A DNA stretch of 64,000 bases from a virus (IMGVR_UViG_3300045988_123958); one strand, 5' to 3'; shown: positions 16,566-51,564, counted from the stretch's first letter. The notes: generated by a model not told the origin, from the sequence alone. Numbers and translations are program-made.

Positions 16566-19500
16566 ATGGCTAAACAATTAAATAGTTATTAGGTTAATTT
16601 ACAATTTACCGCTGATTCTAAATAGGCTCAACAGCAATTATAGGATTTACAAAATTAGCTAAATAATCTAATGGCAAATTCTATAAAAACTGATGCTAGT
16701 TTAGGAATTTCTAAAGATATATAGAGTGCGATTCAACTAACCGCACAATTAAAAACTTAGTTATAGCAAGCAACTAATGTTGACACGGGTAAATTAGACC
16801 TTAGTAAATTTAATTAGGCTTTAAAATAGGGTGGAGTTTCCCTTAAAGAATACCAAAAGAATCTAAGCTTATTAGGACCAGAAGGCGAAAAAGCATTTGC
16901 TAATTTAGCGACTTCTATTTCGCAAGCAGAATTACCTTTAAAAAGAACTAATTCTTTACTGAAAGAGTTTGGGATTACTTTAGCAAATACTGCTCGTTGG
17001 CAAATTTCTTCTAGTATCTTACACGGATTTATGGGATCTTTATAGACTGCTTATGGGTACGCTCAAGATTTAAATGAATCTTTAAATAATATTCGTATTG
17101 TTACTGGATAGACTACCGATTAGATGGCTAAATTTGCTAAATAGGCGAATATCGCGGCCAAAGCTTTAAGCACAACTACTACTGAATATACTGACGCTGC
17201 TTTAATTTATTATCAATAGGGCTTAGATGATTAGGCAGTAAAAGAGCGTACTGATGTTACTATTAAAATGGCTAATGTGGCTCGTGAAAGTGCTGAAATT
17301 GTTTCCGATCAAATGACCGCAGTTTGGAATAACTTTTATAATGGAAGTTAGTCTATCGAGCATTATGCTGATGCGATGGTACGTTTAGGTGCTGATACTG
17401 CATCTAGCACTGATGAAATTGCTGGCGGTCTTGAGAAGTTCGCGGCTGTAGCTGACACAATCGGGTTAAGCTTTGACAACGCGGCGGCCGTTTTAGCAAC
17501 TATTACTGCTACTACACGTTAGAGCGAAGATGTTGTAGGTACTGCTTTAAAAACTATTTTTGCTCGTATTCAAGGTTTAAAACTTGGCGAAACTCTTGAA
17601 GATGGTACTACATTAAATCAATATTCATAGGCTCTTGAAAAAGTTGGAATTAATATCAAAGATTCCAATGGTGAATTGAAAGATATGGATAATATCATTG
17701 AAGAAATGGGTAATAAATGGAATACTATTGATAAAGATTAGCAAGTAGCTTTAGCTCAATAGGTAGCTGGTGTTCGTTAGTATACTCAATTAATTGCTTT
17801 AATGGATAATTTTGATTTTTATAAAGAAAATCTTGCTAGAGCATAGAATGCTGATGGCTCTCTTCAAGAACAAGCAGATATTTATGCTGAATCTTGGGAG
17901 GCCGCCGGAGATAGAGTAAAGGCTTCAGCTTAGAAAATATATGCTGCTCTACTGGATGATAATTTCTTTATTGATTTAACCAATGGATTTAGTTCTGTTT
18001 TAGATTTAATAGGTAATGTATCATAGAGTTTAGGTGGAATGCCTGGTATGTTGCTTTTAATTGGTTCTACAATGTCAAAAGTTTTTTCAAAAGAATTAAC
18101 TACATCTTTTGATAATTGGTTTTATAATTTAGGATTAAAGTTTGGAACTATCAAAAATGATATTGAAGAATTAAAAAAATAGGCTAATGAAAGTCTTATT
18201 TTATCTGGAAATAAAAATACTACTTCTGGAAAAGCAATGAATATGGCTTATTCAGAATAGTCTACCGCTCAATTAATGCTTATTGCTAATGCCGATAAAT
18301 TAAGTGAAAAAGAAAAGTAGATTGCTTCAAGTTTATTAGATTAGCATAATTTATTAGTATAGAGTGTTATTAAACGTGGTGAAGAAGTAGAATTGGCTGA
18401 GAAAGAAGTGAGTACATTAAATAAACGTTCTTCAGTTATGGCTAAAGTAATGGCTAGTAGAACCTACTAGAATGGTACTCCACAAGGTACTGAAGATGCT
18501 GAAAACGTTGCTAATCGTTTTGAAAAAGCTAAAAAGCAAATTTAGGCTTATTCAGAATTAGTTTATAAATTATCTTCTGTTCCTATCGTTAGTGAAGAGT
18601 AGTTTAAAACTGAGGGGCTTGAAAAAGTTAAAAAGATATTAGATGAAGTTTATATAAAAGAAGAAAATTTAAATAAATAGGATTTAGGATTTGGTGCTGA
18701 TAATAAAAATATTAAAGCATTAATTAAAAGTTTAAATAATGGTACTCTAACTGCGAAAAATTTTGAAATTGCTTTGGCTGGATTAGATGATACTAATTCT
18801 ATTAAAAGATTAACTAAGACATTAGAGCTTTGTGGATATGAAACAAAAGATGCTATGAAATTAGCCATGTAGTTAGTTGATACTTATAATAAAGTTGGAG
18901 ATTCCTCGGCTAATTTGACTGAAGATGAATAGAGACTCGCTAATGCCACAAAATCTTTAGGGGATTGGTTTGCAACTGTTAAAGGAGAAACTCAAACTCT
19001 TGGTTCAGCATTCTCCGCTTCTATTAACGGAATAACTAATTTTGGTATGGCATTAACTTCTATTAAAGGATTAATAGATACTTTAAATGACACAGATATG
19101 TCTTTTGGAGATAAATTATTAGCCACTTTTACTTAGTTAGGATTAATTTTACCAAATTTAGTTTATAGTTTTTAGACGGTAAGTAGTGTTCTTGGTCCAT
19201 CTGGGTTTATAGGAAGTATTTTTGCTTCTAAAGCTGCAATGGAAAAATTAAATTAGACTTATGGCGAAAATGTAATTGCAACGGCTACTGATATTATAAT
19301 GAAAAATAAGGACACTTTAGCGACTGATGAAAATACTAGAGTAAAAGTTCTTAATGAATTAGCTCAAAAAGGTATCACTGATACAGAAGAAGCTGCTATA
19401 GTTATTTAGACAATTCTTACAGCTAAAAAAAGAGAAGAAACTCTTGCTATAGAAAAGAATACTCTTGCTGAAATAAAAAATAGAGCAGTTAAATTACTCA

Positions 19501-22500
19501 CTAATAAAACTTTTCTTGCTACTGTTGCTATTAGTGCTGTAGTTATCGGTACTTTATATGCGGTTTCTAAAGCGGCAAATGCTGAAGCAGAAAGTCTTCA
19601 AAAAGCTACTGAAGCTGCTGAAAATTTAAAAGAAAAATCTCAATAGACGAAAACTGAATTAAATAATATTATTTCGGCTTTCGATCAATATTAGACTGCG
19701 ATAGATACATTAAATGAATGTACTAAAGGAACTGATGAGTGGAAAGAAGCTTTATCAGATGTAAATGAATAGATTTGGAGTATTCTTGAAACTTATCCTG
19801 ACTTAGCTAAAATAGATAATCTTTTTAATGAAGATGGCACATTTAATCAAGAAGCTATTGACTCTTTTATAGCAGATAAACGTGATAAATCTAATAACGC
19901 TTAGGCAGCTGCTTTGGCCAGTTAGGCCGCAGTTAGTTAGATGGAATATTAGTCCAATAGAAAAGAAGCGGTTAATTAGGTTTATTCTGTGGTATCTAAA
20001 TATAGCACTAATGGCGAATCCAATGCGGAAAATAAAAAAATAGCAGGAGAATTAGTTGATTCTATCGTAAATGCTATAAATTCTCCTGATGGTATTCAAA
20101 ATATTGATGGAATTTTTGAAGACTATGCTAAGCAATTTGATAATATAAGTCTTGGCACTTCTTTAGATGATTTTACTAACGCTTTAAAGGGATGCTCTGA
20201 TAATTTAAAAGAATTAGGTAGAAATGCTAAAGAAACAGGAAATTAGGTTGATAATACTGGTAAATTATTATCTAAACAAGTTCTTGGCGATAATATAACA
20301 GATGAATAGGCAAATGATTTTACTAATACTTTTGATTCTGCTTATGCCAAACAAAAGAGAATTACTTTAAATGGTTTAAAAAATGATTTTACTAGATGGG
20401 CTGGAAGAAATAATAGTAATGTAAAAGATTATTGGGAACAATATAAAGAAGCTACAGGTTATGATTATAATTTAACAAGTAACGCAGTTCAAGGTAGTGG
20501 AGATAATCGCGTTTTTGAGTATTATAATGATGATGGTAACAAAGTAACCATTTCTGTTGAAGAAATGGCTGAAGCAATTGCTAGTGCTTAGGCTAAAAAT
20601 GATGCCGAAAAATCTACTAGAGAAGATTTAAATAATACTTTAGGTGAAGATATTTCTTCTAATATTAGTTCTGATGTAGATATTTCTCTTTTAAATGATT
20701 TGGTTCAAACTATGAATTTAGAAGATGAAACTACAAGACAAGCTCTTGAAGCGATGTTCGATGTAAATCAAACTGTAAGTGAGCAAGAAGATATTATAAA
20801 AGATTTAGTTAATACTTTAAGTGAAGAAGAAAAAGCTCAATAGGAAGTTGCTTCTTTAACTGAAAATGCTGTTTAGAAATATGGGTTAGATGCTGATGAC
20901 ATTGAAGATTAGGCTAAACGAATTCAGAAAGCCTATGATTTAACTGAAGTTGAAGCAACTAAACTTGCTATTACTAATTAGCGAATGAATAATGGCGTTA
21001 AAAACTTAAGCGACAATTGGGAAAATTGGAATTCTGTTTTAAAGAAAAGTCAAATCGATGATAAAGAAAAATTAACTAAAGAATATACTGATACAATCCA
21101 AGATTTAACTAAAACTATTGCTGATTTAACCGGTGCTTCAGAAGATTTAGAATTACCTGATGAATTTTTTGATTCGGCCGATAATTTAGAATTAATTAAT
21201 TAGGCTGCTCAAGGTAGTACTGATGCTATTAATCAATTGGGTATTGCTGTAGCAAAAACCACAGTTGATTTAATGGAAATTAATGATGCGGAAAAAAATC
21301 TTACCATGACTTATGGGGATAACGAAGATGAAGGTATTTTACCTGAATATATTCGTAATTTCCAAGATAATAAAGAAATTATTTTAAATGGTTTAGATGA
21401 AATTTCAGCTAAACTTGCTGAAGGTCAAGATTTAACTGGTAAAGGATTAGAAGAGATTCTTTCTGGTGGAACTGAAGCTGCAAATAATTGGGTTAATGCA
21501 TTAAATGAAATGGCTATGGCTACTAACATGTCTGTTGAAGACATGAATAGCACTCTTAGTCAAATGGGATTAACTGCTGATGTTGATGTAACTGAAAAAA
21601 CTATTACAAGTAAAAAACCAGTTACTAAAACCACTCTTACTTATGGAGAGCTAGACAAAGTTACAGGATTTCCAAAAGAAATAACTCAGCAATCTAGCAT
21701 AGTTGATTATACTGATGTACCTGAAAAAATATAGGTAGCTCAAATTGCTACTAATGGAGCAAAAAATACTCCTCCTAAAGTTAATTTTGCTGGTTCTGGT
21801 CCCGTATCTCATTCTTCTACTTCGTCAGGGAAAAAATCAAGTGGTGGTTCTTCTTCTTCTAAGCCTTCTAAAATTGATAAATCTAAAAAATCTGATGTTG
21901 TTGATAGATATAAAGAAATAACTGATAGTATCAACGATACTACTCGTGCTTTAGATAAAGCTAATAAATCAGCGGATAGGCTTTGGGGTAAAGCTCATCT
22001 TGATGCGATGGCTAAAAGCAATAAGTTAACTTTAAAAGAAGTTGATTTATTAAAACAAAAGCAAAAAGAAGCTTAGGCCTATTTAAAGACAGATAAAGCT
22101 ACTTTATAGCAAGCTGCGAAAAAAGCTGGAATTACTTTCACATTTGATGCAGATGGTGATATTTCTAATTATACTGATTAGATGACTAAACTTTATAATT
22201 AGCTTGTAGCCGCTTAGGATAAAGCAAATTCTTTTTCTACAAAAGATGCTCAAGATGCTTATAAAGAAGCAACTTTAGATCCTATTCAAAAGAAAATCGA
22301 TGAGTTAAAAGACGCCATTAGTCAATATGAAGATACAAGAGATTTAGTCGAAGAATTAACTGATGATATTCAAGATAAAATAAACGAGTGGCAAGACAGA
22401 AATTATCAAATGCTTACTTATGAAGTTGAAGTAAAGGTTCAATTAGACGAAAATGATACTAAGAAATTAGAATATTATTTTGATAAATTAAGTGATAATA

Positions 22501-24785
22501 TTTATAAAGCTGCTGAAGCTCTTGGATATTTACAAGGTCAATTTGATCCAGTAATTAGCCAATTAGGAACTTATGAAAATTTCTATGGTTAGTTAAACAA
22601 TGCTTATTCTAATGGAGAAATTTCTCAAGAAAATTATATTGAAGGCTTACAAGATGTATATGATAATACATTAGATAATTTAAATGCTTTGTAGGATTTA
22701 GATAAAGAAATGCTTGAATATTATGGTAATACTATAGATTTAGCAAATGATGAATTATCTAAATATACAGATCATATGGAGCATTTAACTAGTGTATTGG
22801 ATCATTATCGTTCTATTATTACTTTGTTAGGTAAAGACAAAGATTATGATAAAGTTTTATCAGTTTTGAATGGAACTGCTTAGACTAAGAAAAATAATTT
22901 TGATACTTCTAAACAATGGTATGAAAGCTTGAAGCGTGAACGTGATGCAGCAGCCGCGGCCTTAGCCAATTCGACCGATGAGGCGGAACGTGAAGGACTT
23001 CAAAAGAATTATGATGCTATATTAGCTGCGTTCGATGAGGCGGAAGAAGATATGCTTTCTAAAGCTGAAGAATATGGTGAAGCATTAAAAGAAATTCTTA
23101 CTACAAAGATGGAACAAGCTGCGGATGAAATGAATAAGCAATTGAGCACTACTAAAGTAAGTATTAACGGTAATAACTTTAATATTTCTGGCTGGGATGC
23201 TTTAAATGACGCTTTGGATAGAATGTCTTCTTATCAAGATGAATATTTAACAAAAACTAATTAGATTTATGAAATGAATAAACTACTTAATAATGTTAAT
23301 TAGGCTATTAATAAGACAAATAATCAAGCAGCTAAAAATAGATATCAGCAATTTACTAAAGAAATTGAGTAGTTAAGAGATAAAGATAAATTAAGTCAAT
23401 TAGAATTAGAAATTGCTTAGGCTAAATATAAAGTGCTTGAAGCACAAATCGCGTTAGAGGAAGCTCAAAACGCAAAGTCTACAGTTAGACTGCAACGTGA
23501 TAATGAGGGTAATTTTGGTTATGTGTATACCGCAGACCAAGAGAAAGTAAATGACGCGCAATAGGCTTTGGCAGACGCGGAAAATGACTTATATAACATT
23601 CGTCTTGATGCGACAAATAAATATGGTCAACAAAAACTTCAATATGAAAAAGAGCTAGCTGAAAAGCTTGCGGAACTCGATTAGAAAGCCGCGGAAGATG
23701 CTGTTTATCGTGAGACCACATATCAGCAAGAACGCGCATTAGTAATTCAACAATATACTGATTTAATTACTACTGCTGGAAACCTTTATGCGAAAGCACA
23801 AGAAGAGGATAACCGAGTAGTTCAAGATGCTTGGGTAAATTCTTTTGATATTATCAAAGATAATAGTAATAGTTGGAAAGATACTATTACTGAAAACACT
23901 AATATTATCAATGATACATTTAAAGAATGGCAAGGCAGTATGGATGAAATTAGTAAAATTGTTGGTGATGATTTAAAAGATACTCAATAGAAAGTTAAAG
24001 ACGTTACTGATGAAAGTAATAAACTTTATCAAGAAGTATCTAATAGAGTTATTCCTGCTCTTGAAAGTGAGTTGAGTTCCGTCCGTAGCGCCACTGAAGC
24101 TTGGGCACAACATCGTCAGCAATTACTTGATACTATTAGAGCTTATGAAGAGCTTTTAGATGCTATCCAAGCGACATTACGTGCTTAGAGTGGATTTGGT
24201 AGTGGAAGTAGCTCTGGTAATGATAGTGATTGGTCTAAAGATATGGGTAATGTAACATATGGGTCTGATGATTATTATAAATATATGTAGAATCGCGAAG
24301 ATAAAATTAATGGTGGATATGATGTTGGAGCTGCTACTAATGCTCGTGTTGATGCTTTCTATCGTAAAGGATTAACACTTCCAATTACTCGTAATGGATA
24401 GACTTATCGTTATTTTACTGACATTCCTGATAGTGTTTGGAAACAATTGGTTGGATTTAGAAGTGGTGGCTATACCGGCACTTGGAATGATGATGGCAAG
24501 TTAGCATTCTTACATTAGAAAGAATTAGTTCTTAATGCTGATGACACGGAAAATATGTTAGCTTCTATTCAATTAGTTAGATAGATCGCGAAACAATTAG
24601 ATTTCAATAGTCAACAAATTTCTACTCTTTCATCTTCTGGATTTACTGTTAGTTCTCAAGATGGAACATTAGAATAGAATGTTAGAATTGAAGCTAGCTT
24701 CCCGAACGCAACTGATAGATATGAAATTCAAGAAGCATTTAATACATTAGTTAATGTAGCTTCTCAATATGCCAATAGAAAATAA
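16566..24785 (+). CDS. tail tape measure protein (2,739 codons)
   Basis: ATG at 16566 is in frame 0. Track ORFs 19989, 20985, 21237, 22410 and 22929 are all in frame 0 and are separated only by TAG. Hand reading found dozens of in-frame TAG and no TAA or TGA before 24783. Contains a TMP-like segment (TEYTDAALIYYQQGLDD). Confidence 0.75.
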
Positions 24786-28550: not shown

Positions 28551-28551
28551 A

Positions 28552-31436
28552 ATGGTTAATAAATTATATCCACCTATTATATCTGGAACTTTGCCAGCAT
28601 TTGTTGGATAGGAAATTACTATTCCATTTCAAATGAACCGTGCAGTTAGTATGGCAGAAGTTTCAGGATTGTGTTATATAATTAAAACAGTATCAAGTAA
28701 TGTAGTAATTGCTTAGGGAACAACCGCGGATTTTACTCCAAGCAAAGTCCGCGGTTGCTTAGAACAAGGTTCTATTACCTTTAATATAAATCTTAAATCA
28801 ATTACTAATAATGGGAAACCTATCCAATATAAATTAAATCCAGGATAGTCTTATAAAATTCAATTAGCATATATTAATACTAATGGAATAATTGGATATT
28901 ATTCTACAGTTGGTATTGCTAAATGCACAACTAAGCCCGCAGTTTATATAAAAGGTTTTGAAGATAATTTAGTAGGAATAAATAAAACAAATTTTATTGG
29001 AGTATATAGTCAAAAAGAAAAAAATGATGATATTACTGAAAAAGTTTATTCATACAGATTTAAAGTGTATGATGAAAATGGTAATATTTTTGCTGATAGT
29101 GGAGAGCAATTACATAATTCAATTAATGACACGGAATTAAATGAAAGTTATGATAGTTTTGAATTAAATAAAGAATTACAAAAAAATAAAAATTATTTTA
29201 TTCAATATTCTATAACTACTATTAATAACTATGAAGCAGAGAGTGTTAGATACCAAATCATTAATAGAGAAACTATTAATCCAGAATTACAAGCAACCCT
29301 TTCCGCTACTATGGATGAAAATAATGGATATGTAAAAATTAATTTAAATGGAATCCGCGATAAAAAAACAGGGTTAGAAATTCCTGCTACTGGGGCTTTT
29401 GCTTTATTAAGAGCCAGTAGCGAAGATGATTTCAATACTTGGAATACAGTATTAAAATTTAAATTAGTTGGTGAAACTCCATCAAGAGAATTATATAGAG
29501 ATTTTACTGTCGAGCATGGGTTTAGTTATCAATATGCGGTTCAGCAATATAGCGACGAAACTGCGGTCCGCAGTAATAAAATCTTTTCTAATACTGTATA
29601 TAGCATTTTTGAAGATAGTTTTTTATATAATAATGGATAGTTATTAAAAATAAGATTTAATCCAAAAGTAAGCAATTTTAAAATTAATACCCTTGAAAGT
29701 AAAACTGATACTATTGGAAGCCAATATCCTTATATTTTTAGGAATGGAAATACTTATTATCACGAATTTCCTATAAGTGGTTTAATTTCTTACCTTATGG
29801 ATGAAGACCATTTATTTATAGGTAAATTAGGCGATGATGAAATTAAAGATTTTACATCAACTGATTTAACTAACTATAATATTAATATAGAACGTCAATT
29901 TAAAACTAAGGCTTTAGAATTTTTAACTGATGGAGAACCTAAATTATTTAAATCTCCAACAGAAGGAAACTTTATTGTGCGTTTGTTAAATGTAAGTTTA
30001 AGCCCTGAAGATAAATTAGGACGTATGCTTCATACATTTAGTGGAACTGCATATGAGATTGATAAAGTTAGTTTTGATAATCTTACTACTTATGGATTTA
30101 TTGACGCGGACCCGCCCGAGAGCGAAATTCTTAAATGGGATAGTATTTCTTTTGATGGATGGTATAAAATTAATGGGTATATTAATGATGTAAATACCTA
30201 TATTGATAATTTGAAAGATGAAAATCTGACTTAGGTAGAAATTAATAAATTACAAGCAAATAAACAAACTTGTTTAGATAATTTATTACAAACATTAAGT
30301 TTTTATCCTATGTTTGAATTACTTTATGACGGAGATCATTATAGTTTATAGACCAAAGATATTTTAGCTAATTCTCCTGCGATAACGATTCGATTTGAAG
30401 GTTTTGCTCCTGGAGATAAGTTCAGCATTGATGGAGAAGAAATTGTTATTGGTATTACAGGAGCTTATTTAATAGATCATGTTGCTCCAATCTATAGTGT
30501 TAAAGTAGTAGAATTATCTGACGTGGGCTTATAGCAAGGAACTATTGTGTATTCTTATTATGGTAAACAAGCAAGTAAGTTTGATACTATTAATGATATT
30601 CAAGTGGCGGATTTGCCTTTAGAGCAATATTATGGAACTGAAGGTAATATTTTAAATCTTTATAATGATGATTTTAAATACAAAGTAACATAGATTTATT
30701 TCTTGCGTTTTACTAAGCGTGATGTATAGAAATTATATACAAGTAATAAAGTTAATTTTTATACTACTCCCGGCGGAGCAATTAGTGAAGAAGAAGGAGA
30801 AAAAGATCATTCGGTAGAAATTAAACGTGTAGATTTTGATCCTACCTTAATTTATCATATCTATTTAGTAAGTCAAACTGAAGAACAAGATTACTATATT
30901 GATGGATATACTAAGAAAGAAATTTATGATTCTGGCGTATTAGTTAGTGAAAAGAATTGGGCTTGTAATATTAGAATAAATGAAGATGATAAACAAATTA
31001 TTGGTATTGATTAGAAGAATGAATATTAGGTTAAAGACTTAACTGATATTACTTCTATTGAAATCGATCCAGGTGTTTTATGCGAATTATCAGTTCAACG
31101 TCAAGAAGTAGTTTACTCTTTTGAAAATGATAATCAAACTACTTATAGAATTTTTAATGGTTAGAATTATACTACAACTACAATTTATCAATTAAAGCAA
31201 AATTGGTTAAGGGCTAAGAAGGCTTTAAAAGATTTTAAAGAATTAGAGCAAGATAAAAGCAATCCTGATTTTACTAAAGATGATCCATTTTATAATGTAA
31301 ATTAGAGTAATATTTAGACTTGTATAAAAAATTATAATAATAAAGTAGCAGAATTGCAAAAGATAGTTGATGAAACATATACTTTATTTATTGATACTTT
31401 AAGAAAGGCGGTAGAGGATTATGAAGACTCAAAGAC
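28552..31436 (+). CDS. tail/baseplate structural protein (about 960 codons)
   Basis: ATG at 28552 is in the same frame as track ORFs 29065..29640 and 29797..30234. Many TAG codons. Ends at a TGA that overlaps the next gene's start. Confidence 0.5.
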
Positions 31437-33727
31437 AATATGATACCGACTTTCTTAAAAAATTAGACGAATTTAAACATAAAGTAGTTTATGCTCGTAT
31501 TGAGCTATTAACATTTGATGAATTGCCAATAGAGAGTATAGAAGGCAAGATAACCGGCGGATCGATTAATATTGATGGAACATCTGCGGTCCGCAGGTCT
31601 TGTTCCCTTACTATGATGACTAATGAGAAATTATATAGACAATATTCTTGGGGTTTAAATTCTAAATTTAGTTTAGCTATTGGATTAGAAAATAAGATTG
31701 ATAGTAAATATCCAGATATTATTTGGTTTAATCAAGGTATTTATTTAATTACTTCTTTTAATACTTCTCAAAGTGCTAGCTCATATAGCATTTCTATTCA
31801 AGGTAAAGACAAAATGTGTTTATTAAATGGAGATTTGGGAGGAGATTTACCTGCTTCTATAGATTTTGGATAGGAAGAAGTAATTACTTATACTTATAAT
31901 AAACAAGATAATATAACCAAAGATAACTATATAAAAGGTAAATATTGCTATATTGTCAATAGTGAGGAAGAAGCTAAGAAACATAACGTTTATTATATTT
32001 CTACTTAGAATAAACAAACCACTTATTACGTTTTAGATGAAGAAGAATTTAGTAATAGAGAATACTATTTAAGAGAAAGTTATTTAAATTTAATTCAAAT
32101 TCCTATTTAGACTATTATTAAAAAACTTCTTACAGTTTATGGCAAAGAAAAAGAAAGTAATATAGTTATTAATGATTTAGATCAATATGGTTATGAATTA
32201 TTGGCTAATAAATGTGATGAAACTATGTATTTTTTTAAAGACGCGCAAACTAATAGAATAGTTAATGCTTCAATAGGGATATTGCCAGATTTATTAGATG
32301 TAAATAATAATAAAATAACTGATATGAGTAGTATTAAATTCGATAATTTAGATAGTAATAAATTATTAGATGACGCTTCTGAACCGACTAAAGTAAGACT
32401 GGTAAATAACGGAACTATTTATACTATTATAAGTCGAACAACTAATGAAACAGTTGGTTATCGTATTTGTGATTTAGTCTATGCAGGAGAACTTATTACA
32501 AGTGTTGGTGAAAATGTGGCTAGCGTGTTAGACAAAATTAAAAATATGTTAAGTTGTTTTGAATATTATTATGATATAGATGGTAGATTTATTTTTTAGC
32601 GAAAGAAATTTTATGAATACCAATCTTGGAATAATATAGTAAATAATTCTAATGGAGATAGTTATATTGAACCTGCGGTTTATTCTTCTTCTTCAATTTA
32701 TTCTTTTAGAGATGGATAGACGATTATTTCTTTTAATAATACTCCATAGATTGCTAATTTAAGAAATGATTTTTCTATTTGGGGATAGAGAGAAAGCGCC
32801 AGTGGGGCAGAAATTCCTATTCATTTAAGATATGCAATAGATCAAAAGCCTATCCAATATACCACAATTACTGTGAACGATAATGATATAAATAGGTATA
32901 AATCTACAATGTATAATAATGATATTTTTGATACTATGAATCCGCAATTAGAACAAAAGACTTATAAAAACAAATGGTATCAAAGCGAAAATGAACCGGG
33001 AGTTATTTATTGCGATTGGCGTGAAGTTTTATATCGTATGGCCGTAGATTATTATCAATATAATTATGCAGATGATTTTACTAGTAAAGTGGCAACCGCT
33101 AATCCTGATTTTTATCCTTCTGGAATAACTGGTTATGAAACTTATTATGTAGATTTATTTTCTTTTTGGAGAGATATCTATGATTATGATAAGTTAGATT
33201 TTAAAGAAGAAGTAAAGAATAATCCTGAGAATTTAAATTTTTGGTTTGATTTTATTGGGGAAGAAAATGCGGATATTGCTAAATATTCAGTCCAATTAAT
33301 CGGAGATAGAACAAAAGCAATTAATGATACTAATATAAAAGTTATATGTTATAGGGATACCCCTGATGTATTATTTATGACATAGACAGATTATGATTCT
33401 ATTATTTAGAATAACTATCCAGCAGAAAGCGGATATATTTGGATTAATATTCCTTCAGGATATGATAATTATTTTAAAATTAGTTCTAAAGGTAAGAGTG
33501 CAGTTGATGAAATTGAAGATTTACTTTACACGACCGCTTACTGCACGGAAAGTGTTTCAATTTCTACTATTCCAGTTTATTATTTAGAGCCTAATAATAG
33601 AATTTATATTGAAGATAAAAGAAGTGGCGTTGAAGGAGAATATTTAGTTAATAAAATAACTATTCCATTAACTTATAATGGTTCAATGTCTATTAGTGCC
33701 ACCAAAGCGATATCAAGAGTATATTAA
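31421..33727 (+). CDS. tail tip protein, Tal / prophage-tail N-terminal-like (about 768 codons)
   Basis: Track ORFs 31421, 32201 and 32873 share a frame and are joined by TAG. The N-terminus resembles tail-associated-lysin / gp27-like hub proteins. Confidence 0.45.
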
Positions 33728-36446: not shown

Positions 36447-37028
36447 TTGCCTAATACATTAAATAAATATGTAAAATTTGTTAGAGGTTCTAAAACTGCT
36501 TTTGAAAGTTTAGGAACCAAAAGAGACAATGATACTTTATATTTTATTTATGGGGAAAATGATTCTTCTGGAGAACTTTATTTAGGTAGTCGTTTAATTT
36601 GCGGTGGAATTAGTTCCGGGGGTAAGTTAAGCGATTTAAGTGATATTGTTCTCAATGAAGTTAAAACAAATCAAGTTTTAATTTATAATGAAGAACAAAA
36701 AAAATGGGTTAATTAGGGCTTAGAAAATAATGAAACTTTAATTAATTCTATTGTTGAAAAATTATCTACGGAAGAAAATTTAGCTAAGTTAGCTCCTGTT
36801 TTTAAGGGTACAGTTCCAGGCTTAGTTCCAGTTTCTTTGCATGAAACTAAAGGAAAACATATTCTTACTGATGCTGGTACATGGATTGATATGCCAGTAG
36901 GAACATTAACTTAGGGAGATATTGAAACAATTAATATAGCTAATAAATATTTAGTAGATAAGGGTCCTGATAATTTGGTAACTCGTGTTGAAGCGGTTGA
37001 ACAAACTGTTTCTTGGGCTGATATTTAA
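36447..37028 (+). CDS. fiber N-terminal anchor-domain protein (short paralog)
   Basis: Track ORF 36447..36716 extends through 2 TAG to 193 codons. Its N-terminus is paralogous to those of the genes at 37043, 38809 and 49240. Confidence 0.5.
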
Positions 37029-37042: not shown

Positions 37043-38689
37043 TTGAACGTTAAGTTTTTAAAAGGCTCTCAAGCCGAATTTGAAAAGGTGGCAGGTAGAT
37101 ATAAACCTGGTGCGTTTTATTTAGTAATTAATGATAATAAGTCCGCAAAAGACTATAAAAAACCAAGCCGTCTTTATTATGGTGTAGATGAAAATAATTG
37201 CGTTCCTGTAAATCAAGGTATTAATGTAGTTGATACTATCGCAGGTTTACCTCAAAGTTTTAGTCAAAATACTGCTGGCGAATTTTATTATGTAAAAGAT
37301 AAAAATATCTTATGTATTAATAATGGTAAAGGTTGGATTCAAACTAACACTGATACTGTTTTAGATACTAGTAAAAAAAATAGTAATGTATCAGTAAATA
37401 GTAATCCTGAAAAACCTAATGGAGTTTCTATAACTAATACTATTGCTGATAGTAGTGGTAATATTATTACTGAGACTTATGATATTATTGGTAGCGATTA
37501 TATTCAAGTGGAAGCAATTCCTGCTGTTGATGATAAAGGTGTAGACACTGTTAAACTGAGTTTAAAAGGAATTAATTATCAATTAAGCTCTTCTTTAAGT
37601 GATAAAACTTTAAATGTTAATTTAAAAAATGCTGATACTGATGCGGGTAATTTTAATATTATCGCTGGCAGTAATGTTAATATTGCTGAAAACCCCGCTG
37701 GTAGTTATACTTTAAGTGTTGATAAAGCAGTTAATGATATCAACGTAATTAACCACGCTAATGGTACTGGTTTTACTGCTTCTATTAGCGGTCCTGGTGT
37801 TGAAGGAGCTGGTAATAGTACAACTTTATCTGCTGATATTGATCCAGAAATTGCTTTAGAAGGCAAGGATGGCAGTTATAAATTTAAAGATGGTGTTTTA
37901 ACTCTTCCTGTTTATAGTAAACAAGATATTGATAATCAGCTTAGAACTATTAACGCTATGATATTCCGTGGCGGATTCTAGGTTAAAGATGGAGCCATTA
38001 TTTATGATAGCGCTGATATTACTGAAATTGCTGAAGGTAATACCTTTATTTATACTGGCGCTGAAGACACTCTTTGGAACGGTCATTACTTACGTCCTGG
38101 AGATTTAATTATCGCTTCTGGCAAAGAAGTTGATGGTGTTATTACTGGTACTATTAGTTGGACTTATGTTCCTTCTGCTGATGATCCTGTTACTGAGGTC
38201 GAAGGAGCTGATGATAACAGTAATGCTGGATTTATTATTAAGCTTGGTCCTACTAAAGAACTTTTAAATTATGTCCTTAAAGGTGAAGAAGGTATTGAGT
38301 TAGAAGTAAAGGCTCAAACTGGTTCAGTAGTGAAAGAAATTACTATTAAACACAGTAATACTTTAACTGTGAATACTCCAGTCTCTCAAAATTATGCCGA
38401 TGAGTAGACTATTGTTATTAATGAACCAACTGAAATTGATGCTCAAGGCCATGTAATTAAATCTACTAAAAAAACATTTACTGTAAAGAATACTCACCAA
38501 GAAATTGCCAACGCAGATTATACAGTAAATGGTACTGATACTTTAATTCCTAATCTTAAAGTTGCTGGTGCTGATCTTGAAGGTAAACCACTTGTTTTCA
38601 CTAGTAATAGCTTAAAAGTTAATGTTTCTGCGGCAACTAAGACTGATGATGCTAAAGTTAATTTTGAGTTAGAGTGGGGAACATTCTAA
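37043..38689 (+). CDS. tail fiber protein (about 548 codons)
   Basis: TTG start; track ORF 37043..37981 extends through TAG. Shares the N-terminal anchor domain with the other fiber genes. Confidence 0.55.
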
Positions 38690-38788: not shown

Positions 38789-38808
38789 AGGATAGAAAGG
38801 AGTAAATT

Positions 38809-41800
38809 ATGTCTAAGATACGTTTTCGTCCTGTATAGGGCCCAGAAGAAAAAATAAAAGAATATCCTCAAAGCGATGGATATTTTTATGTGGCAACAGA
38901 TACAGGCCGAGTTTATTTAGATACGGCAACTGAAAATAAAATGCCAATAGGGTCTAGTGGTGTTCAGGTAATTTACGGTACAGATAATACTGTGGAAATT
39001 GAATATGATGCGGATGAAAACCCAGTGGCTTATTTAATTCTTTTATCAAAATTATCTATAACAAATTGTCATATAGATGATTTAATTTTAAATTTAGACG
39101 GATGTTTTTATCGAATTTTAGGTTTTGCTTTAAATGAAAACCGCGAAGAATGTGCGAGATGTGAAAAATTAACTGTCGCTGGGGCAGGCGGTGGCGGAGA
39201 AGGAGACTCTGAACAAAAAGTTTTAGGAACTGTTTCTTTAACAAGAATTCCATCTGACAGCCCTGTTGATATCTTAAATGAAGAAAATGTTAAAGTAAAA
39301 GTTTTGGTTAAATGTAGAACTGTTGGTGGCGTTCCGCAATCTTCTTCTGTGCAAGGAATTATAACTATAAGCGAAATTAAAAGTGCTACAGAAAAAGAAA
39401 TTTATTATACTTCTCCTCCTACTACTTATGAGCACAATATTCCGCAAGAAATTGATTTAACTAATATTTTAAGAAATTCATGTTCTAGTGAAATTAATTT
39501 TAGTATTTATTATAATCCTGATAAAGAAAATAATAGATTTTAGAAAAGCTCTGATACTATTAATATTAATAAACATCATCTTTCTTTTAGTTGGAAAGAA
39601 AGTAGTTTTAGTAATGATAGTCCAGTTGATAATGGACAAATATCTGTTAGCTGGTTAATGTCTGAAGATATTGCTAGATCTGTTGAAGTTTATTTTGATG
39701 ATTATTTAGTTTTAGATAGAGCTTATAGTGATACTGATTCTTCTTCTGAAGATTCTTTTGTTATTACTCCTGATACAAATATATTAGGGGTTGACAAAGT
39801 TTCTACTTTAAAAAATTATTTTACTCATGGTGAGCATATAATAAAAGCAAAGTTGTATTTAATGAATAATTCTAAAAAAGGCGCGGGAACAGATTTTATT
39901 CAAAAGGAAATTGTTATTCAAGAATCAGGTAATAAAATGCCTTTAATTTGGGTACAAGATTTTAAGACAGAATATTATACTTATGAGACAATAAGAATTC
40001 CTTTTAAAGTATTAGATCCAAATAATAATGGAGCTTTTATAACTCTTTATAAGAATGGCGTTCAAGTAGGAACTAGAGAATTAGATAGTTCACAAGTTAG
40101 AGAATGGCAATATTGGGAAATTACTAATTTAACTGTAGATGATAGTTCTTATTATACTATTAAAGTTGGTACTGATCCTTATTCTTATTCTCGTAATTTT
40201 AATTTTACAATTTTAATTGATCCTTTAAGAGATATGAAATTAGCAAAAAAAGATAATTTAAAAGTTAATTTTATAGCTACTGGTCGTTCTAATTCAGAGG
40301 GAAAATTAGGCCGTGAAACTTATTTAATTAATAATAATAAATACGTAGAATTTAAAAATTTTAATTGGTATAATAATGGCTGGATTTTCGATGAAAATAA
40401 TACAACTTGTTTACGAGTAAGTAATGGTGCAGAAGTATCTATTCCAGTTGGGAAAATGGCTTTTAAAGATGGGTCATCATCTGCTACTATTGAGGTTCAA
40501 TTTAAAATAAAAAATCCTCAAAATTATGCTAAAGTTATAACTAAATATACTAGATATAAAGTAAGTAAAGATAATTGGGAAGACGATGATGCTTGGGATA
40601 AATTTAAAGCTCAAAATAAATATCTTAATTATGATGAGTTTTTAACTAAAAAATATTTACCGACAACCAATTATAGTTATGATGATTTAGAATATAATAA
40701 AATAGAACAAGATTTTAATTTAAAGAATTTAGTTTGTGCGTATGGTAAATTAGGAAGCTCTGTATCTCCTGGTATTTATTTTAGTCCATAGGATGCTGTA
40801 TTTACAGCTAATGGTGCTCAAGAAACAGTTTCAGTTGATTTTATTGAAAATGAAATGCTAAATCTTTCATTTGTTTATACTAAAAAGAAAAGTGATATAG
40901 AAGGCGGAAATTCTAAATTATTAGAAATTTTTATGAATGGCGTTTTAACTAGTGTTGTACGTTGTAGTAGTGATGTTTGGAATATTGATTCTGATTTCAT
41001 TAAATTTATGTCTAATACTTGTGATATTGATATTTATAGTATTAGAGTTTATGATACAGATTTAACCATTCCTGAAATAGTCCAAAATTACGCTTTTGAT
41101 AAGAGAAGTATAAAACAGTGGGACCAAAAAGATCTTTATGAAAACAATACGGTATTAAAAGATGATGTATTTTCTTATACTAAAATGAAAAAGTATAATG
41201 ATAATCATCCGACTGAACCTTTAATGCCCTATATTATTTTAAGGACTACTAAAAATAATAAAAATAATACGGATAATAGATTACCTTATTCTAAAGCAAA
41301 AGAAAGCTAGGAAGGAACTTTAGAATTTGTTAACACTGCTTTAGACGCTGCTTACAACAGTGGTGAATTAGAAAAAGTTGCTATAAAAGAAGGATGGAAA
41401 CCTGTAATTGAAAAAAATGAAGAAACATAGGAAGAAGTAGTAAAATATACTGCGGTATAGAATTATTATATGCATCATTGTCCTAGTTTTATAACTGTTC
41501 TTAATGGATGTACTTTCCAAGTTCAAGGTACTTCTTCACAATTTTATCCTCGTCGTAATTATAAAGCTAAATGCAAAGAATCAATGCTTTTAAATAGAGG
41601 CCCATTTGCTGAAGACTATAAAAAAGCAGGAGACTAGTATAATGAAGATATAACTAAACATCCTTGTTATTTAGAATGGTTTTATATGGATAATAAGACA
41701 GTCGGTACTACTAAATTTACTTTAAAAATAGATTTTATGGAATCTTCTGGAGATTATAATAGAGGATTTGCTAATTTAGTTAACGAGATTTATTCTAAAC

Positions 41801-44800
41801 ATCCAGTAGAAGACTATAAAGATTCTTTTGATAATTATAATTTATATGGAAATTTAGAAGATTATCGCACTTCGGTAAAAGGATTCCCCGTCTTAGCTTT
41901 CCACTATATGTCCAACGATGATAATACTTACTCTAAGGAAAATAGTAATAACTGTATTTTTATTGGCAAATATAATATGTTATTAGATAAAGGATCAGAT
42001 GAATGTTTTGGATTTAAACCAGATAAAAAGATTTTACAAAATCAAATTACGGGCAATCCTAAAGTAAGAGATATGGCAGAATGTTGGGAATTTTAGAACA
42101 ATTCAAGAACTTTCTGTTCTTTCCGTGATCCTTGGAATCGTTATAAATTATCATTTAGAAATCCTAATATGGTAATACCTCCAGACGGAGATAATCCTGA
42201 ATTAGTTAAAGGCGCTCCAAAAGTCGTTGATTCTTTTGAGCCAAGATATAATCCAAATGATGATTTAATTGCTAAATAGTTATTTAGTTTAAAAGACTGG
42301 CTTGATCCAGATGGAACATAGACTGAGGCTACTGGAAAAGAATTAAAAAATGTAGCTCCTGATAGACTTACTAAAAAAGAAGTAGTAGATGAGCTTACTG
42401 GAATAAAATCTACTAAATGGATTATAAAAAATCCCGATGGAGAAGAGATAGAATTTAATGTTAAAGATGATACAAGCAAACAAGAATTACTTTTAGCTTT
42501 AATGTCTAACTGGGAAGATGCAGTTAGTTGGGTTTGGAGTACTTGCTTAGATTGCGATATTGAATTTGATGATGGATAGAAATTAAAAATTCCATCTATG
42601 GGCGTTTATACTAAAGTTGATGGATTAGCTGAAGCCATATATGTTCCTAATGTCTATTATGTTGAAAATGGAGTTAATGAAAATGGAAAAATTATTTATA
42701 AATTAGCTTCTGAAGAATATAACTCTGAAACAAGATATTATAAGTAGATTAATGAAAATAATAGTTTAAAGTATGTAAGCATAAAACTTACAAATAATTC
42801 AGATAAAGTATATAAAGCAAATATTTATTATCTTTTAACTGATAGTAAAAATGAAATTTATGTATTAAGTTCTGATAAATTTAATTCTTCTTTAGATTAT
42901 TATTCTTTTAATAAAAATGAAGAAGGTATTGAGGAAAGATGGAAATTACCTAACCCAGTAACCTATGGCTCTATTACTTATACTAAAGATAGTAAAGAAT
43001 ACCGTCAAGCTAAATTTAAAAATGAATTAAGTAATTTCTTTGATATTGAATATTTAGCTTCTTACCTTTTAATGACAGAAATTTTTGAATGTTATGATTC
43101 TCGTGGAAAAAATGCAATGTTTGCTTCTTGGGGGCCTCAAAAAGGCAATGTTCAAAAATCTACTGGCAAACAACATTATGTTTGGTATCCTATCTTTTAT
43201 GATATTGATACTCAATTAGGTATTAATAATACTGGTATTCCATCTTTTGAATACTATATTGATGCTACTGAAGAAGGAAGTTTTTCAACTAACGATAGTG
43301 TTCTTTGGAATAATTTTTACACTTTCTTTAGAAGTAAGATGGTGGATAAGTATAAGCAATTAATGGGAACTCAAAATAATTCTTATAGTCCAAATGATTC
43401 AAGAGTAAATAAAATTTTTATTAAAGGCGCTGAGGCAGGGGCTAAAAAAAGTGATATTGTAGATAAATGGTATCGTACTGATCCTTCAGTATTCCCCGGT
43501 AGTTATGCGGCTTTAGGAGACCGACCAATTATTGCATTAAGTTTGGATGAAGAATTTAAATATATTATTCCAACAAATTCTAAAGCAGAAAATATGCCAG
43601 TATTTGGTCGTTTAAAGGATGATGGATCTTATGGCCGTGAAGATGATAAATATTTTTATGCTTTACAAGGAGATAGAAATCTTTATCGTGCGCAATTTTT
43701 AGCCAATCGTCTTAATTATATTGACTCTTGGTTAACTGTTGGTACTTATGCCAGAAATGGTGGAGGAAGCTATATTAGAAGTCGTATTTCCGCGAACAAT
43801 CCTAAGAATACATCAGATAAATGGATTGAAGGTACTAACACTCAAAACATGGAAGGATTAATTACAAATTCTCAGTATTGGAAAAATGGTACTGAATTCG
43901 AAGAAAAAAATCATATGTTTGATGGTGAGTATTGGATCAACATGGAACCCGCGCGTAATGCCTATGTTACTATTGGTACAGATGGAGAGAATTTTCCTTC
44001 AAAAAAATATAATGGTTTAGAACCGGTTAAATATGTAGCTCCTGATATTAAAAAAGGAATTATGAGTAGCGGAAATTATAAAGAACAATTATATTATATT
44101 TATGGAATGGATCAAATGAAATCTCTTGGTGATTTAAGTAAATTATATTTCCAAGAGTTTGCAGCTGAAGGAAAAATGGAGCGTTTAACTGATTTATTAT
44201 TAGGATATGATGGAAAAGATGAAAGCGGTAATGAATATTTTAATAATGATGTAAATGACTGGTCCTTCTCAAAAGGTGGAATGCCTTTACTTAAAGAAAT
44301 GAATCTTTGTAATATTAACTTTAAAAAAGACTAGGGGGCATTAGATTTAACTAAGAGTGAAAAACTTGAAAACTTTAGAAATACTAAATCTAATATCCCG
44401 AGAGTTAATTTTGCTCCTGGAGTAGCTTTAAATACTTTATATTTAACCAATCGAACAAATTATTTAAGTTTAATAGAAGCTAATTTATTAACGAAATTAA
44501 TAACTAACTATATATATCCTGAAAAAAATTCAATTACTGGAAAACTTGAGGTCTTAGATGAAAATCGTGGTTTATATATTCAAGGTCTTACTGATGCTGA
44601 AGAAGGAAAAGAAAAAACCGAGATAAGAACTTTTGATATTCGAGGCGGTAATTTAGGTTATAATAGTTATGAATTGTTACGCAAATATATTTCAGCTAGT
44701 AAAAATAGTAAATTAGATTTATCTAATTGTATTATTAATTTAAATAATGTTTAGTGGAGTCCATATAGACTTCTGACTGACACTAAAACAACTCTTGACC

Positions 44801-46553
44801 CAGAAAGAAAATCTTATTATAGAGATAATGGACATTTTTAGTTAACAGCTATTCCAAAAGATTAGGTTAATAAAATAACAAAATCTGATATTAAAAATAA
44901 TTAGATTTATTATTTAGATACAATAAATGGAGACAATAATAATCATAATATAATAACTGATTATAATTTATTAATTGATATTTATAATAATTATAGGGGT
45001 CTTAATACTAATAAACCAGAAATATCTGGTGTTATGTATATAAAAAATAATAATTAGATTGATGAATCTATTATCTAGAATGAGTTATAGGATAAATACC
45101 CTGATTTAATAATTTTTGTAGAAAATGTTAAACAAGAATGTTCTGCCAAGTTTATTTTAGAAAAAGAAGATATTGATGGAGTGTTAATTTAGGAGGTTCT
45201 AAAAACTTAGAAATTACCTTTATCTAGCAGTAAATTCTTTGATGATCCAACAAATTCTTCTAGCGAAACTTATATTTCTTTTGGTAGCTTACAAGAAAAA
45301 ATGCCAACTTATGATTTTAAAGGTTGGGAAGATGATACGGGAGAATTAGTAATTACTGTTGGAAAAAATGTAAATGAAGAAGATGTTGTTTTAAAAAGCG
45401 ATTGGAATTCTTTGTCTTTACAACCTAATAAAATGGATTATATTTTTAAAGCGAGATTTAAGCGTAAATCTTATACGATCACTTTCGTTAATGGTGACCG
45501 CGTTGTTAATGATTCAACTGTAAAGAAAGTATTTAATTATGGTGAAAGAATTACTGTTCCAGAAGAATTCTATTATTTTAATAATACAGAAGTATCTAAT
45601 TTACCAGAAGGCGAAGATCCATTAGAATGGACTTGGAAATAGGCTGGATGGGCGGATAAAGATGGAGTTAAAATTGATTTAACTAAACAATTAGCTTATT
45701 CCGACCGTGAATTCTATGCTGTTGGAGAGCCGATTAGTGTTTATGATAATATTTTAATTAATGATTCTGCTCATAAATATTATGATATTATAAACTCTGA
45801 TGGAGAATTATCATTTGCAATGACTGACTTAGCTAAGAATTTAAAAGGCAAAATTACTTTACCTACAACTTATAATGGTTAGCCAATTACAAGAATTAAA
45901 TATAGTCAAGTTAACCCATCAGCAGCAGTTGGTATTCAAGTAAATCCTAATATCACTGCGATATTTTTTGCTCCAAAAGATAGCAATAAAATTTCTGTAA
46001 TAGATGATTATGCTTTTATTTTAGATAGTGGGTTAGAATATTTCCAATTTAGTGATTGTTTAAAGAAAATTGGTACTAAAGCATTTTATCAATGTCCTTT
46101 AAGTCGTAATAACATAATTCCTTATTCTTCTTCTACTGAAGGTTTGACTTTTGGAGCTCAAGCATTTTATCAAAGTAAGATGGGTTCTTATTCTCCTTAT
46201 AATTTAATTATAGAGGGATGCAAAGACGGTATTCTTAATTTTGATATAAATGCGTTCTCTGGTTAGACAATTTTAAATATGTCTGGTAATTAGTTTAAGG
46301 GTTATACTGGTGCTATTCAAGTATAGATTGGCACTAATAAACATCCAATTAAATAGATTACGGCAGATAGTTCTGGTAATATTTTTACCCCTCGTCAAAC
46401 AGGTATGCCTACTGTCGCTAATGGATATACAGGTCGTTTTAGATATTATTATGTTGCTAGTTATGGTGAAAGTGTTAAGAATACTTTACATAGAATTTAT
46501 GAAGCAATGATATCTAATAGAGCAAACTTTGAAGAAGAACCTATTGTAAAGTG
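38809..46553 (+). CDS. giant tail fiber / receptor-binding protein (about 2,581 codons) with Listeria-Bacteroides-type repeat and BspA-type LRR C-terminal region
   Basis: ATG at 38809 is in the same frame (pos mod 3 = 1) as track ORFs 38890, 39658, 40855, 41686, 43072 and 45301. Hand reading of the gaps shows only TAG, no TAA or TGA, up to a TGA near 46551. The C-terminal region contains GYxFxGW-like repeats (YDFKGWED) and an LRR-like stretch (ISVIDDYAFILDSGLEYFQFSDCLKKIGTKAFYQC). Confidence 0.55.
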
Positions 46554-46563
46554 AGGATAAAAT

Positions 46564-48539: not shown

Positions 48540-48545
48540 AGATAA

Positions 48546-49166: not shown

Positions 49167-49239
49167 ATAAACTAAATGGTATAGAATTATTAATTTAATT
49201 CTATACCATTAATTTATAGAAAGGAGTTATTGAAGATCG

Positions 49240-50299: not shown

Positions 50300-50707
50300 A
50301 TGGATCAAAATTTAATTAATCAATTGTTTCAAGTGTGTTTGATTCCTATGCTTGGTGCTTTAACCACTTTTATAGTTATTTGGATTAAAGCAAAAAGTGC
50401 AGAATTACAAAAGAAAACTAATAATGATATTTTAAATAAATATGTGCAAATGGCTACTGACACAATTACTAATTGTGTTATTGCCACCAATCAAACTTAT
50501 GTAAATTCTCTTAAAGAACAAGGTAAGTTTGATGAAGCTGCTCAAAAAGAAGCATTTTAGAGAACTTATCAAGCAGTATTGCTTATTTTAAGTGATGATG
50601 CTAAAGAGTATTTGAATAATGCTTTTGGTGATTTAAATAAATATTTACAAGAGAAGATTGAGTCTACAGTAAATAATTATCGTACTCCAAGTAATGATTT
50701 AAAGTAA
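50300..50707 (+). CDS. putative holin
   Basis: Track ORF 50300..50560 extended through 1 TAG to about 135 codons. Single N-terminal transmembrane helix (LIPMLGALTTFIVIWI) followed by a charged C-terminal tail. Confidence 0.45.
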
Positions 50708-50713: not shown

Positions 50714-50755
50714 TAAGGGAGACATTCTTAATTGAATGTCTCCCTTATTTTTTTT
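50714..50755. terminator. bidirectional rho-independent terminator
   Basis: AAGGGAGACATTC...GAATGTCTCCCTT hairpin flanked by A- and T-runs, between convergent genes. Confidence 0.7.
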
Positions 50756-51470: not shown

Positions 51471-51564
51471 TTTGTTTATTTTAGAAAAAATTTTTCTATT
51501 TCTATATTTTCTCTATATTATAATTATACAAAAATTTTTAAATATTGTAAAATAAAAAATTATA

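Follow-up and report, generated by a model that had tools for sequence, protein, structure and literature searches.

Position 38809 of a 64,000-nucleotide stretch of viral DNA (IMGVR_UViG_3300045988_123958; the whole stretch is referred to below as the window) opens a series of plus-strand open reading frames (ORFs) that share one frame and are separated only by TAG codons. The locus raises the question of whether this series is one gene or several and, if it is one, what kind of protein it encodes and what that protein would do for the phage. A previous sequence-only reading had proposed a single giant tail fibre, carrying Listeria-Bacteroides-type repeats and a BspA-type leucine-rich-repeat (LRR) region near its C-terminus. 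The best explanation of the data presented here is that 38809-46554 is one late gene of a long-tailed siphovirus in which TAG is recoded to Gln, and that its product is most likely a tail side fibre or receptor-binding adhesin.

One gene in which TAG is read as glutamine

In the frame of ATG 38809 the nearest upstream TAA lies at 38803, and the first stop other than TAG is the TGA at 46552-46554; between start and stop there are 28 TAG codons and neither a TAA nor a TGA. As had been proposed, the ORFs starting at 38890, 39658, 40855, 41686, 43072 and 45301 (six of six) share the frame of 38809, and no TAA or TGA, which would divide them into separate genes, is present between them or anywhere else across the frame. 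The start of the proposed span, 38809-46553, also stands, while its end has to be moved one base further, to 46554. The chance of finding 2,581 codons free of TAA and TGA, computed from base composition, is ~3e-81, and the two alternative frames of the region contain TAA and TGA at 0.05 and 0.16 per codon. Full-length homologues of 2,555-2,868 amino acids (aa) are found on many independent contigs.

TAG is read as glutamine in this gene, because it alternates with CAA and CAG at homologous positions. The orthologues on two contigs of related phages, L002 (192.6 kb) and L003 (154.7 kb), have TAG as their only internal stop and end in TGA, and their TAG sites mostly differ in position from those of the window. 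Aligned to L002, the 28 window TAGs face 11 TAG and 6 Gln codons (17 together), the other 11 being scattered singletons; aligned to L003 they face 7 TAG and 8 Gln codons (15 together), with the remainder distributed over many residues. The reverse comparisons, from the TAGs of L002 and L003 to the window, give a similar pattern.

Reading TAG as a sense codon increases the ORF content of the plus-strand block (1 to 50.7 kb) from 9.7k to 20.8k aa. Throughout the 27 plus-strand genes TAG makes up 233 of the 664 Gln-type codons, and the terminators are TAA in 23 genes and TGA in 4, with none ending in TAG. A tRNA scan that covered the 64-kb window and four fetched loci (L002-L005, 13-28 kb), out of a genome of ~150-195 kb, yielded no tRNA gene in them and hence no suppressor tRNA(CUA); some recoded phages are known without a suppressor tRNA (PMC10607447).

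The practical consequence concerns annotation. A 371-aa standard-code piece of the C-terminus (P0085, window ~45440-46554, 98% identical) has been entered in NCBI/ENA as an independent protein that counts 95 member sequences, and is a code-11 mis-annotation. Code-11 gene calling fragments the giant gene; once TAG is translated as Gln the product is recovered whole and ranks among the largest receptor-binding-type proteins of gut phages.

Domain architecture of the giant protein

The modules of the protein (Table 1) would follow one another in the order anchor, beta-rich region, LamG-type domain, CotH-type domain with an insertion, internalin-like LRR, two Flg_new units, and an LRR_5 tip with its cap.

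Table 1. Positions of the giant gene, of the modules of its product and of neighbouring genes in the window (residues are those of the giant protein)
Feature	Position	Residues	Strand	Basis or remark
Single gene	38809..46554		+	2,581 codons then TGA stop; 28 in-frame TAG read as Gln
Shine-Dalgarno AAAGGAG	38796..38802		+	6 nucleotides 5' of ATG 38809; read from sequence
N-terminal conserved region	38809..39228	1-140	+	motif F.P.(Q/R)G...G.(F)Y.ATDT...YLD, G-rich end LTVAGAGGGG
Beta-rich region	39229..40248	141-480	+	end overlaps phrog_24896
LamG / concanavalin-A-like lectin-type domain	40249..41148	~481-780	+	approximate boundaries; Laminin_G_3 in homologue
CotH-kinase-like domain	41476..43908	~890-1700	+	invariant motifs, AlphaFold2 (AF2) model, Pfam in relatives
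~230-aa insertion within the kinase-like fold	42259..42948	1151-1380	+	most variable segment of gene
Typical (internalin-like) LRR domain	44119..44838	~1771-2010	+	
Two Flg_new (Listeria-Bacteroides / InlB B-repeat-like) units	45145..45744	~2113-2312	+	ends YDFKGW, WKQAGW
BspA-type LRR_5 solenoid, distal tip	45844..46452	~2346-2548	+	relatives' Pfam, family profile, AF2
C-terminal cap, one helix and final strand	46453..46551	~2549-2581	+	AF2 H421-440, E445-451 of fragment, pLDDT (predicted local distance difference test) >90
Terminase large subunit	2157-3896		+	phrog_2
Portal	4366-5928		+	phrog_2739
Capsid-type protein	8477-9583		+	position; matches a PHROG of unknown function
Tail-tube-type virion protein	13549-14532		+	phrog_2729
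Tape-measure protein, 2,739 aa, 77 in-frame TAG	16566..24785		+	length, position, helical low-complexity sequence
Large tail proteins	24946-36358		+	one matches tail PHROG phrog_1887
Tail protein	31421..33727		+	phrog_1887 / phrog_32343
Two fibre-like genes, TTG starts	36447-37028, 37043-38689		+	N-termini resemble giant gene's motif
Smaller fibre-like genes	47026-50265		+	sequence resemblance
Holin, end of late plus-strand block	50300..50707		+	phrog_13712, E 6e-38

Concerning the C-terminal part, the peptides quoted in the sequence-only reading were located at aa 2168-2188 (YDFKGWEDDTGELVITVGKNV), 2220-2234 (KSYTITFVNGDRVVN) and 2395-2432 (ISVIDDYAFILDSG...QCPLS), and both assignments that had been built on them, Flg_new and LRR_5, are right at the level of family and fold. 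For Flg_new (PF09479, cut-off 27 bits), 11 of 21 aligned C-terminal segments of relatives match, the best with an E of 2.1e-7; in one homologue (P0067) the match reaches 35.3 bits and maps to window aa 2222-2295. The InlB B-repeat 2y5p is the second-best PDB match of the C-terminal model in Foldseek (probability 1.0, template-modelling score on the target 0.66, E 0.05). The window protein itself has no match to PF09479 at E<=1. The BspA-type LRR shows the same division: LRR_5 (PF13306) is found in 19 of the 21 aligned segments at the listing limit of E<=1 (best 3.9e-26), whereas the window protein scores 19.9-23.0 bits (E 8e-5 to 7e-4, aa ~2393-2455), below the gathering cut-off of 27.7. The family profile retrieves from the PDB the crystal structures 4fs7 (1.2e-23), 4gt6 (2.8e-20), PcpA (4cp6, 2.2e-12) and TpLRR (6mlx, 2.5e-9), and TpLRR 6mlx is also the top Foldseek match of the AF2 model of the C-terminal part (pLDDT 90.2, solenoid >90). 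When only the tip (aa 2300-2581) served as query, the protein search retrieved solely a standard-code fragment of the same gene; it revealed no close bacterial donor and gave no pointer to the host.

Correct as they were, these domain calls were limited to the last ~470 residues. About three quarters of the protein went unnoticed, most of it made up of a LamG-like domain, a CotH-kinase-like domain and an internalin-like LRR. The region aa ~890-1700 is predicted to adopt the CotH atypical-kinase fold. The AF2 model of aa 885-2010 (pLDDT 79; predicted template-modelling score, pTM, 0.79) ranks 5JD9 and 5JDA first in Foldseek, with probabilities of 0.99 and 0.98, and the fold match spans 308 of 359 CotH residues. 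The Pfam family PF08757 (cut-off 23.8 bits) has no match in the window protein itself, and is matched in the distant full-length homologues P0076 (47.3 bits), P0083 (33.7) and P0082 (31.8), over a region that maps to aa ~1066-1556.

Four motifs are invariant in 72 homologues, a set that includes members passing the Pfam CotH threshold and whose alignment was also used reduced to 33 sequences: QGTSS at 906-910, K973/D975, DSRGKN at 1430-1435 and YDxDT at 1464-1468 (YDIDTQLG, 1464-1471, in the window). Both D1430-x3-K-N1435 and D1465-x-D1467 lie within the Pfam-aligned catalytic region. CotH of B. subtilis is inactivated by mutation of either Asp228 or Asp251, which are catalytic or metal-binding residues, in the account of these mutants given in PMC7821199; D1430 and D1465 would be their equivalents, judging from motif order and Pfam coordinates and not from a residue-level structural alignment. 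The insertion within the fold is shorter or missing in distant homologues, where high-scoring segment pairs (HSPs) stop at ~1150 and restart at ~1380. Its identity to P0013 is 47%, against 72-75% for the flanking lobes, and among relatives that are 97-99% identical substitutions concentrate at aa 1156-1220.

At the protein's opposite end, aa 1-140 are proposed, from the pattern of their conservation, as the domain of attachment to the virion. The otherwise unrelated giant proteins P0075, P0077, P0079 and P0080 have only this N-terminal region in common, and between close relatives it stays with the phage backbone (81% nucleotide identity, versus 53-83% for the body). It begins with MSKIRFRPVQGPEEK..., which is not hydrophobic; the whole protein contains no signal peptide or membrane segment, its maximum Kyte-Doolittle 19-residue mean being 1.23. 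The beta-rich region that follows (aa 141-480) has no Pfam match, and the family phrog_24896 matches aa 336-571 with an E of 3.6e-16. The LamG-like region has no significant Pfam match in the window protein itself; Laminin_G_3 (PF13385) is found in homologue P0076 at 29.6 bits (cut-off 27.6), over a part that maps to window aa 655-757, and the conserved motif of the region is NFNWYNNGW...TCLR.SNGA...IRVY.

Genomic position, mosaic variation and proposed function

The position expected of a tail fibre is borne out: the gene lies downstream of the tape-measure gene and of a tail protein gene (phrog_1887), and upstream of the holin gene. A cultured bacterium that uses the standard code, Zongyangia hominis NSJ-54, carries an uninterrupted homologue of 1,734 aa whose domains come in the same order, and which lies immediately behind a Prophage_tail (PF06605) gene. 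Pfam identifies in it LRR_5 (1.2e-19), LRR_4 and CotH (1.1e-3); its PHROGs are those of the window protein, with phrog_14959 matched at 1.8e-147.

Variation along the gene is mosaic. Set against a phage with which it shares 91-99% identity over 27 kb, the window falls to 62-77% at 39.2-45.3 kb and nowhere else, and this stretch is the body of the giant gene. The first ~130 and the last ~440 codons track the phage backbone, third codon positions included: at these positions identity is ~0.6 within the body and rises to 0.77-0.96 over the C-terminal ~440 codons. P0011 and P0012 display the reverse, with a body 76-99% identical and an LRR_5 tip at 35%; the tip is exchanged as a cassette among relatives. 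An anchor that is conserved while the distal modules are exchangeable is what marks host-range determinants. As the sole divergent island between near-identical phages, the giant gene is therefore an obvious candidate host-range determinant, for a phage group that is abundant and uncultured.

In Z. hominis the gene next after the giant homologue (L017, 7361-8074) encodes a 237-aa protein that consists of LRR_5 only, which suggests that an LRR_5 tip can also occur by itself, as a free-standing accessory protein of the tail.

As a tail side fibre or receptor-binding adhesin, the protein would be fixed to the baseplate or tail tip by its N-terminal ~130-aa anchor, and the LRR_5/Flg_new tip, probably together with the lectin-like domain, would bind molecules of the host envelope. 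Swaps of whole modules between related phages, affecting either tip or body, would then change specificity. The CotH-like domain could function as a phosphotransferase, whether in the cytoplasm while particles are assembled or on a molecule of the host surface, or else be a conserved binding scaffold.

Several points weigh against this picture. Classical tail fibres are trimeric and fibrous, whereas the prediction for the giant protein is a row of globular domains, and its virion location is something that we infer from gene context. The two PHROG families involved, 14959 and 24896, are annotated as of unknown function. The window protein falls below the Pfam threshold for every domain, so that domain assignments rest on family profiles and predicted structures: its own Pfam search gives only the sub-threshold LRR_5, NCBIfam yields no match, and single-sequence phmmer searches of the PDB return none, either for aa 900-1799 or for homologue P0082. 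The sequences modelled are two database entries that are 98-99.6% identical to the window product: P0003, which differs from it at 2 of 452 aa, and P0001, which differs at 16 of 1,126 aa. Foldseek E-values of the C-terminal model, 0.045-0.05, are weak, though its top matches are the very families predicted by the profiles. Finally, a kinase outside the cell would have no obvious source of ATP.

This last point bears on the idea of a tail protein that is chiefly enzymatic, in which an active CotH-like kinase would modify virion proteins or a host envelope polymer while the LRR and lectin modules position it. The idea draws on the D..KN (catalytic-loop-like) and DxD motifs, which are invariant in the 72 homologues where the adhesin modules vary, on the extent of the fold match, and on the CotH C-lobe, which is among the best conserved body segments (74-77%) and adjoins an insertion at 47-50%. 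This conservation could equally be structural, and the correspondence of D1430 and D1465 to D228 and D251 comes, as said, from motif order and Pfam coordinates. Kinase activity is a prediction from sequence and fold, ATP is not available outside cells, and CotH proteins of Mucorales have been reported to act as ligands in host binding (PMC9973265), so that adhesion is within the reach of the fold. Taken together, a chiefly enzymatic role is unlikely.

Catalytic activity of the CotH-like domain in any role is doubtful, and a virion-borne active kinase, with phosphotransfer serving tail-tip assembly or adsorption and infection, would seem rather improbable. Were the kinase active, its substrates might be structural proteins of the phage itself, for instance the tape-measure protein with its Ser/Lys-rich stretch, or a component of the host envelope, and, if it is active in the virion, the variable ~230-aa insertion might act as a loop for substrate or receptor recognition. 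The Ser/Lys-rich stretch in question (SSTSSGKKSSGGSSSSKPSKIDKSKKSD) resembles the Ser-rich substrates of B. subtilis CotH, a link to the CotH-like domain that is speculative. Such a kinase fold, its catalytic motifs intact, in a probable tail protein would be accessible in the cultured prophage systems of Zongyangia and Hespellia.

Even less probable is a function away from the virion, as a late 'moron' or effector that would remain intracellular or be released at lysis to bind cells, mucus or debris. The combination of LRR_5, Flg_new, LRR and LamG is indeed typical of bacterial surface adhesins, CotH kinases work in the mother-cell cytoplasm (PMC7821199), and the PHROG annotation of unknown function leaves room for such a role. 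Yet the gene stands within the tail module, among tail and fibre-like genes and before the holin, and the prophage homologue occupies the slot of a receptor-binding protein, directly after the tail endopeptidase gene. A conserved N-terminus with a swapped body or tip is the pattern of tail fibres, and the homologue in Hankyphage is the target of a diversity-generating retroelement (DGR) and adjoins a tail gene. The protein has no signal peptide or anchor and therefore cannot reach the cell surface by itself; a secreted adhesin was rejected for want of a signal peptide.

A further reading takes TAG for a true stop and the 7.7-kb open frame for an AT-rich accident, the region then being either a pseudogene in decay or a set of two to six genes. 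It would agree with the division of the frame into ORFs by the standard code, the deposition of P0085 as a separate protein and the absence of a suppressor tRNA from the window and L002-L005, but is effectively refuted by the negligible chance of so long a frame, homology to full-length proteins that is unbroken over every TAG, TAG sites that vary between homologues and alternate with CAA/CAG, the uninterrupted standard-code homologue in Z. hominis with its identical domain order, and the similar recoding seen in every late gene of the window, those for terminase, portal and tape-measure among them.

Related giant proteins, the phage and its host

The tail side fibre or receptor-binding adhesin proposed here has many relatives. 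A database search returned 84 of them, mostly 2,200-2,900 aa long and collinear over the full length, from many independent assemblies. With aa 885-2010 as query, 977 clusters at 50% identity were obtained at E<=1e-3, of which 175 remain at E<=1e-30; the majority measure 2,100-2,900 aa. In addition, 98 homologous loci were confirmed in reference genomes and metagenome-assembled genomes (MAGs); a blastn search of the gene against 50,697 phage records gave no match. It had been thought that adhesin-like modules of this type would be unusual in a phage receptor-binding protein. This view fails on frequency, because of the 977 clusters and the 98 loci in genomes and MAGs, and cultured Clostridia also have such proteins in the tail modules of their prophages; what is left of it is that these proteins are uncharacterised. 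About 1,000 clusters, including prophages of cultured Clostridia and Hankyphage, appear to share the scaffold of anchor, LamG and CotH-like domain, with LRRs in the relatives examined.

The closest described proteins are giant DGR targets. Wu et al. (2018) placed phage-linked targets of ~2,000 aa with CotH and Laminin_G_3 motifs in their category f1 (PMC5758913), a 2024 preprint describes in its domain group 3 targets of >2,000 aa with homology to the CotH active site, carbohydrate-binding motifs and LRRs (bioRxiv 10.1101/2024.11.15.621889), and Benler et al. label such giant DGR proteins 'currently unstudied' (PMC8008677). Like these, of which the 6.7-kb gene of Hankyphage p00 is an example, the window protein is phage-borne, longer than 2,000 aa, adjoins tail genes and combines LamG and CotH; LRRs are shared according to the literature descriptions. 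The two proteins are 24% identical over aa ~1393-1666, a match that falls inside the p00 DGR target. The p00 gene comes directly after one for a 'minor tail protein', and its 3' end is the DGR variable repeat.

The differences lie in the tip, in the source of variation and in the host. DGR giants end in a C-type-lectin fold that is hypermutated by a reverse transcriptase, whereas the window protein ends in two Flg_new units and LRR_5; variation comes from the DGR in the Hankyphage type and from module exchange in the window family; and the hosts are Bacteroides for the former and Firmicutes-type for the window phage. The possibility that the giant gene is itself a DGR target was rejected, given that no direct repeat of the template/variable type of at least 40 nucleotides is present in the window and that the C-terminus is LRR_5 and not a C-type lectin. 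Among the window genes scanned, which are part of the total, no reverse transcriptase was seen. The window protein thus belongs to the LamG-CotH giant superfamily, in which the new element is a non-DGR tip of LRR_5 and Flg_new; interchangeable tips (LRR_5/Flg_new here, C-type lectin in DGR targets) would be carried on a shared scaffold. In the literature searched we found no description of an LRR_5 and Flg_new tip in phage tail proteins, nor of CotH in prophage receptor-binding proteins.

Resemblance to better known families is partial. With CotH kinases (PF08757; 5JD9/5JDA) the protein would share the D..KN and DxD motifs, which are conserved in the region covered by Pfam positions 105-278; it differs from them by an identity of 14%, by the ~230-aa insertion and by the embedding of the domain in a protein of 2,581 aa, CotH being a free enzyme of ~360 aa. 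Like Listeria InlB and the BspA, TpLRR and PcpA proteins, it joins an LRR solenoid with Flg_new/B-repeat beta-grasp units. Unlike internalins and BspA, it has no signal peptide and no LPXTG, GW or choline-binding anchor, and is encoded in a phage tail module; moreover, its internalin/BspA-like modules are the last ~470 residues only (~18%). It resembles at most an internalin-type binder and is not a member of the internalin family.

As regards the phage, its terminase has 44-47% identity to the terminases of large Firmicutes siphoviruses, among which are the Enterococcus phages VRE9_4, H1 and EF1, Geobacillus virus E3 and phAss-1. A crAss-like phage, suspected from low GC and TAG recoding, was rejected, as terminase and gene order point to siphoviruses of the SPbeta/E3/phAss-1 type. 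With phAss-1 and the 'Caudoviricetes code 15 clade' the window phage has in common TAG-to-Gln late genes, a very long tape-measure protein, and anaerobic ribonucleotide reductase (RNR)-activating, dUTPase and Pol III alpha genes. More distant kin are the Enterococcus phages VRE9_4/H1/EF1, Geobacillus virus E3 and SPbeta-type phages. phAss-1 is long-tailed and TAG-recoded, has probable Clostridia hosts and a tape-measure protein of 3,149 aa (PMC10607447). Its receptor-binding protein is a pectate-lyase-type fibre of 1,070 aa, or split (PMC10607447), where the window phage has the CotH/LRR giant, and contigs with the window gene family (155-196 kb) are larger than phAss-1. Relatives of the window phage reach contigs of ~150-195 kb. 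The length of the tape-measure protein in the window (2,739 aa) implies a very long tail.

The host is taken, as a weak assignment, to be an anaerobic gut Firmicute. The minus-strand genes at 55724-63160 encode a dUTPase, an NrdG-type radical-SAM activase, the anaerobic RNR NrdD, a guanylate kinase and a Pol III alpha-type HHH_6 fragment; the presence of NrdD and activase genes therefore points to an anaerobic host, and strong Shine-Dalgarno sequences fit one of Firmicutes type. The closest match in the genome collection (70% identity, full length) is on a 164-kb contig binned in an 'uncultured Mollicutes' MAG, and others are mostly in Clostridia MAGs, a host signal that is weak, binning of phage contigs being unreliable.

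Around the giant gene, a short N-terminal motif was seen by inspection to resemble the starts of three neighbouring fibre-like genes (36447-37028, 37043-38689 and 49240-50265). The HSP between the giant protein and the product of the 49240 gene has an E of 0.19, and the sole significant one is between the genes at 36411 and 37037 (E 3e-4). The two TTG-start genes, 36447-37028 and 37043-38689, stand behind a good Shine-Dalgarno sequence, the same as that of the giant gene, and gene callers shorten their counterparts to 45 and 243 aa. Directly 3' of the giant gene, the adjacent plus-strand genes 47026-48540 and 48546-49166 are paralogues (37.5% identity over ~140 aa) with no PHROG match, and contain a 62-nucleotide DNA repeat at 47141 and 48700.

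Past the holin, at ~50.7 kb, a strand switch and a change of sign in GC skew coincide with the end of the TAG-rich late block, and the minus-strand genes beyond have few or no in-frame TAG. Directly at the switch lies, on the minus strand, a gene for a response-regulator receiver-domain protein (50754-51569; PF00072, 34 bits), which is conserved in L002. The HHH_6 fragment of Pol III alpha type adjoins a GIY-YIG endonuclease, and the pair may represent a polymerase gene split by a homing endonuclease.

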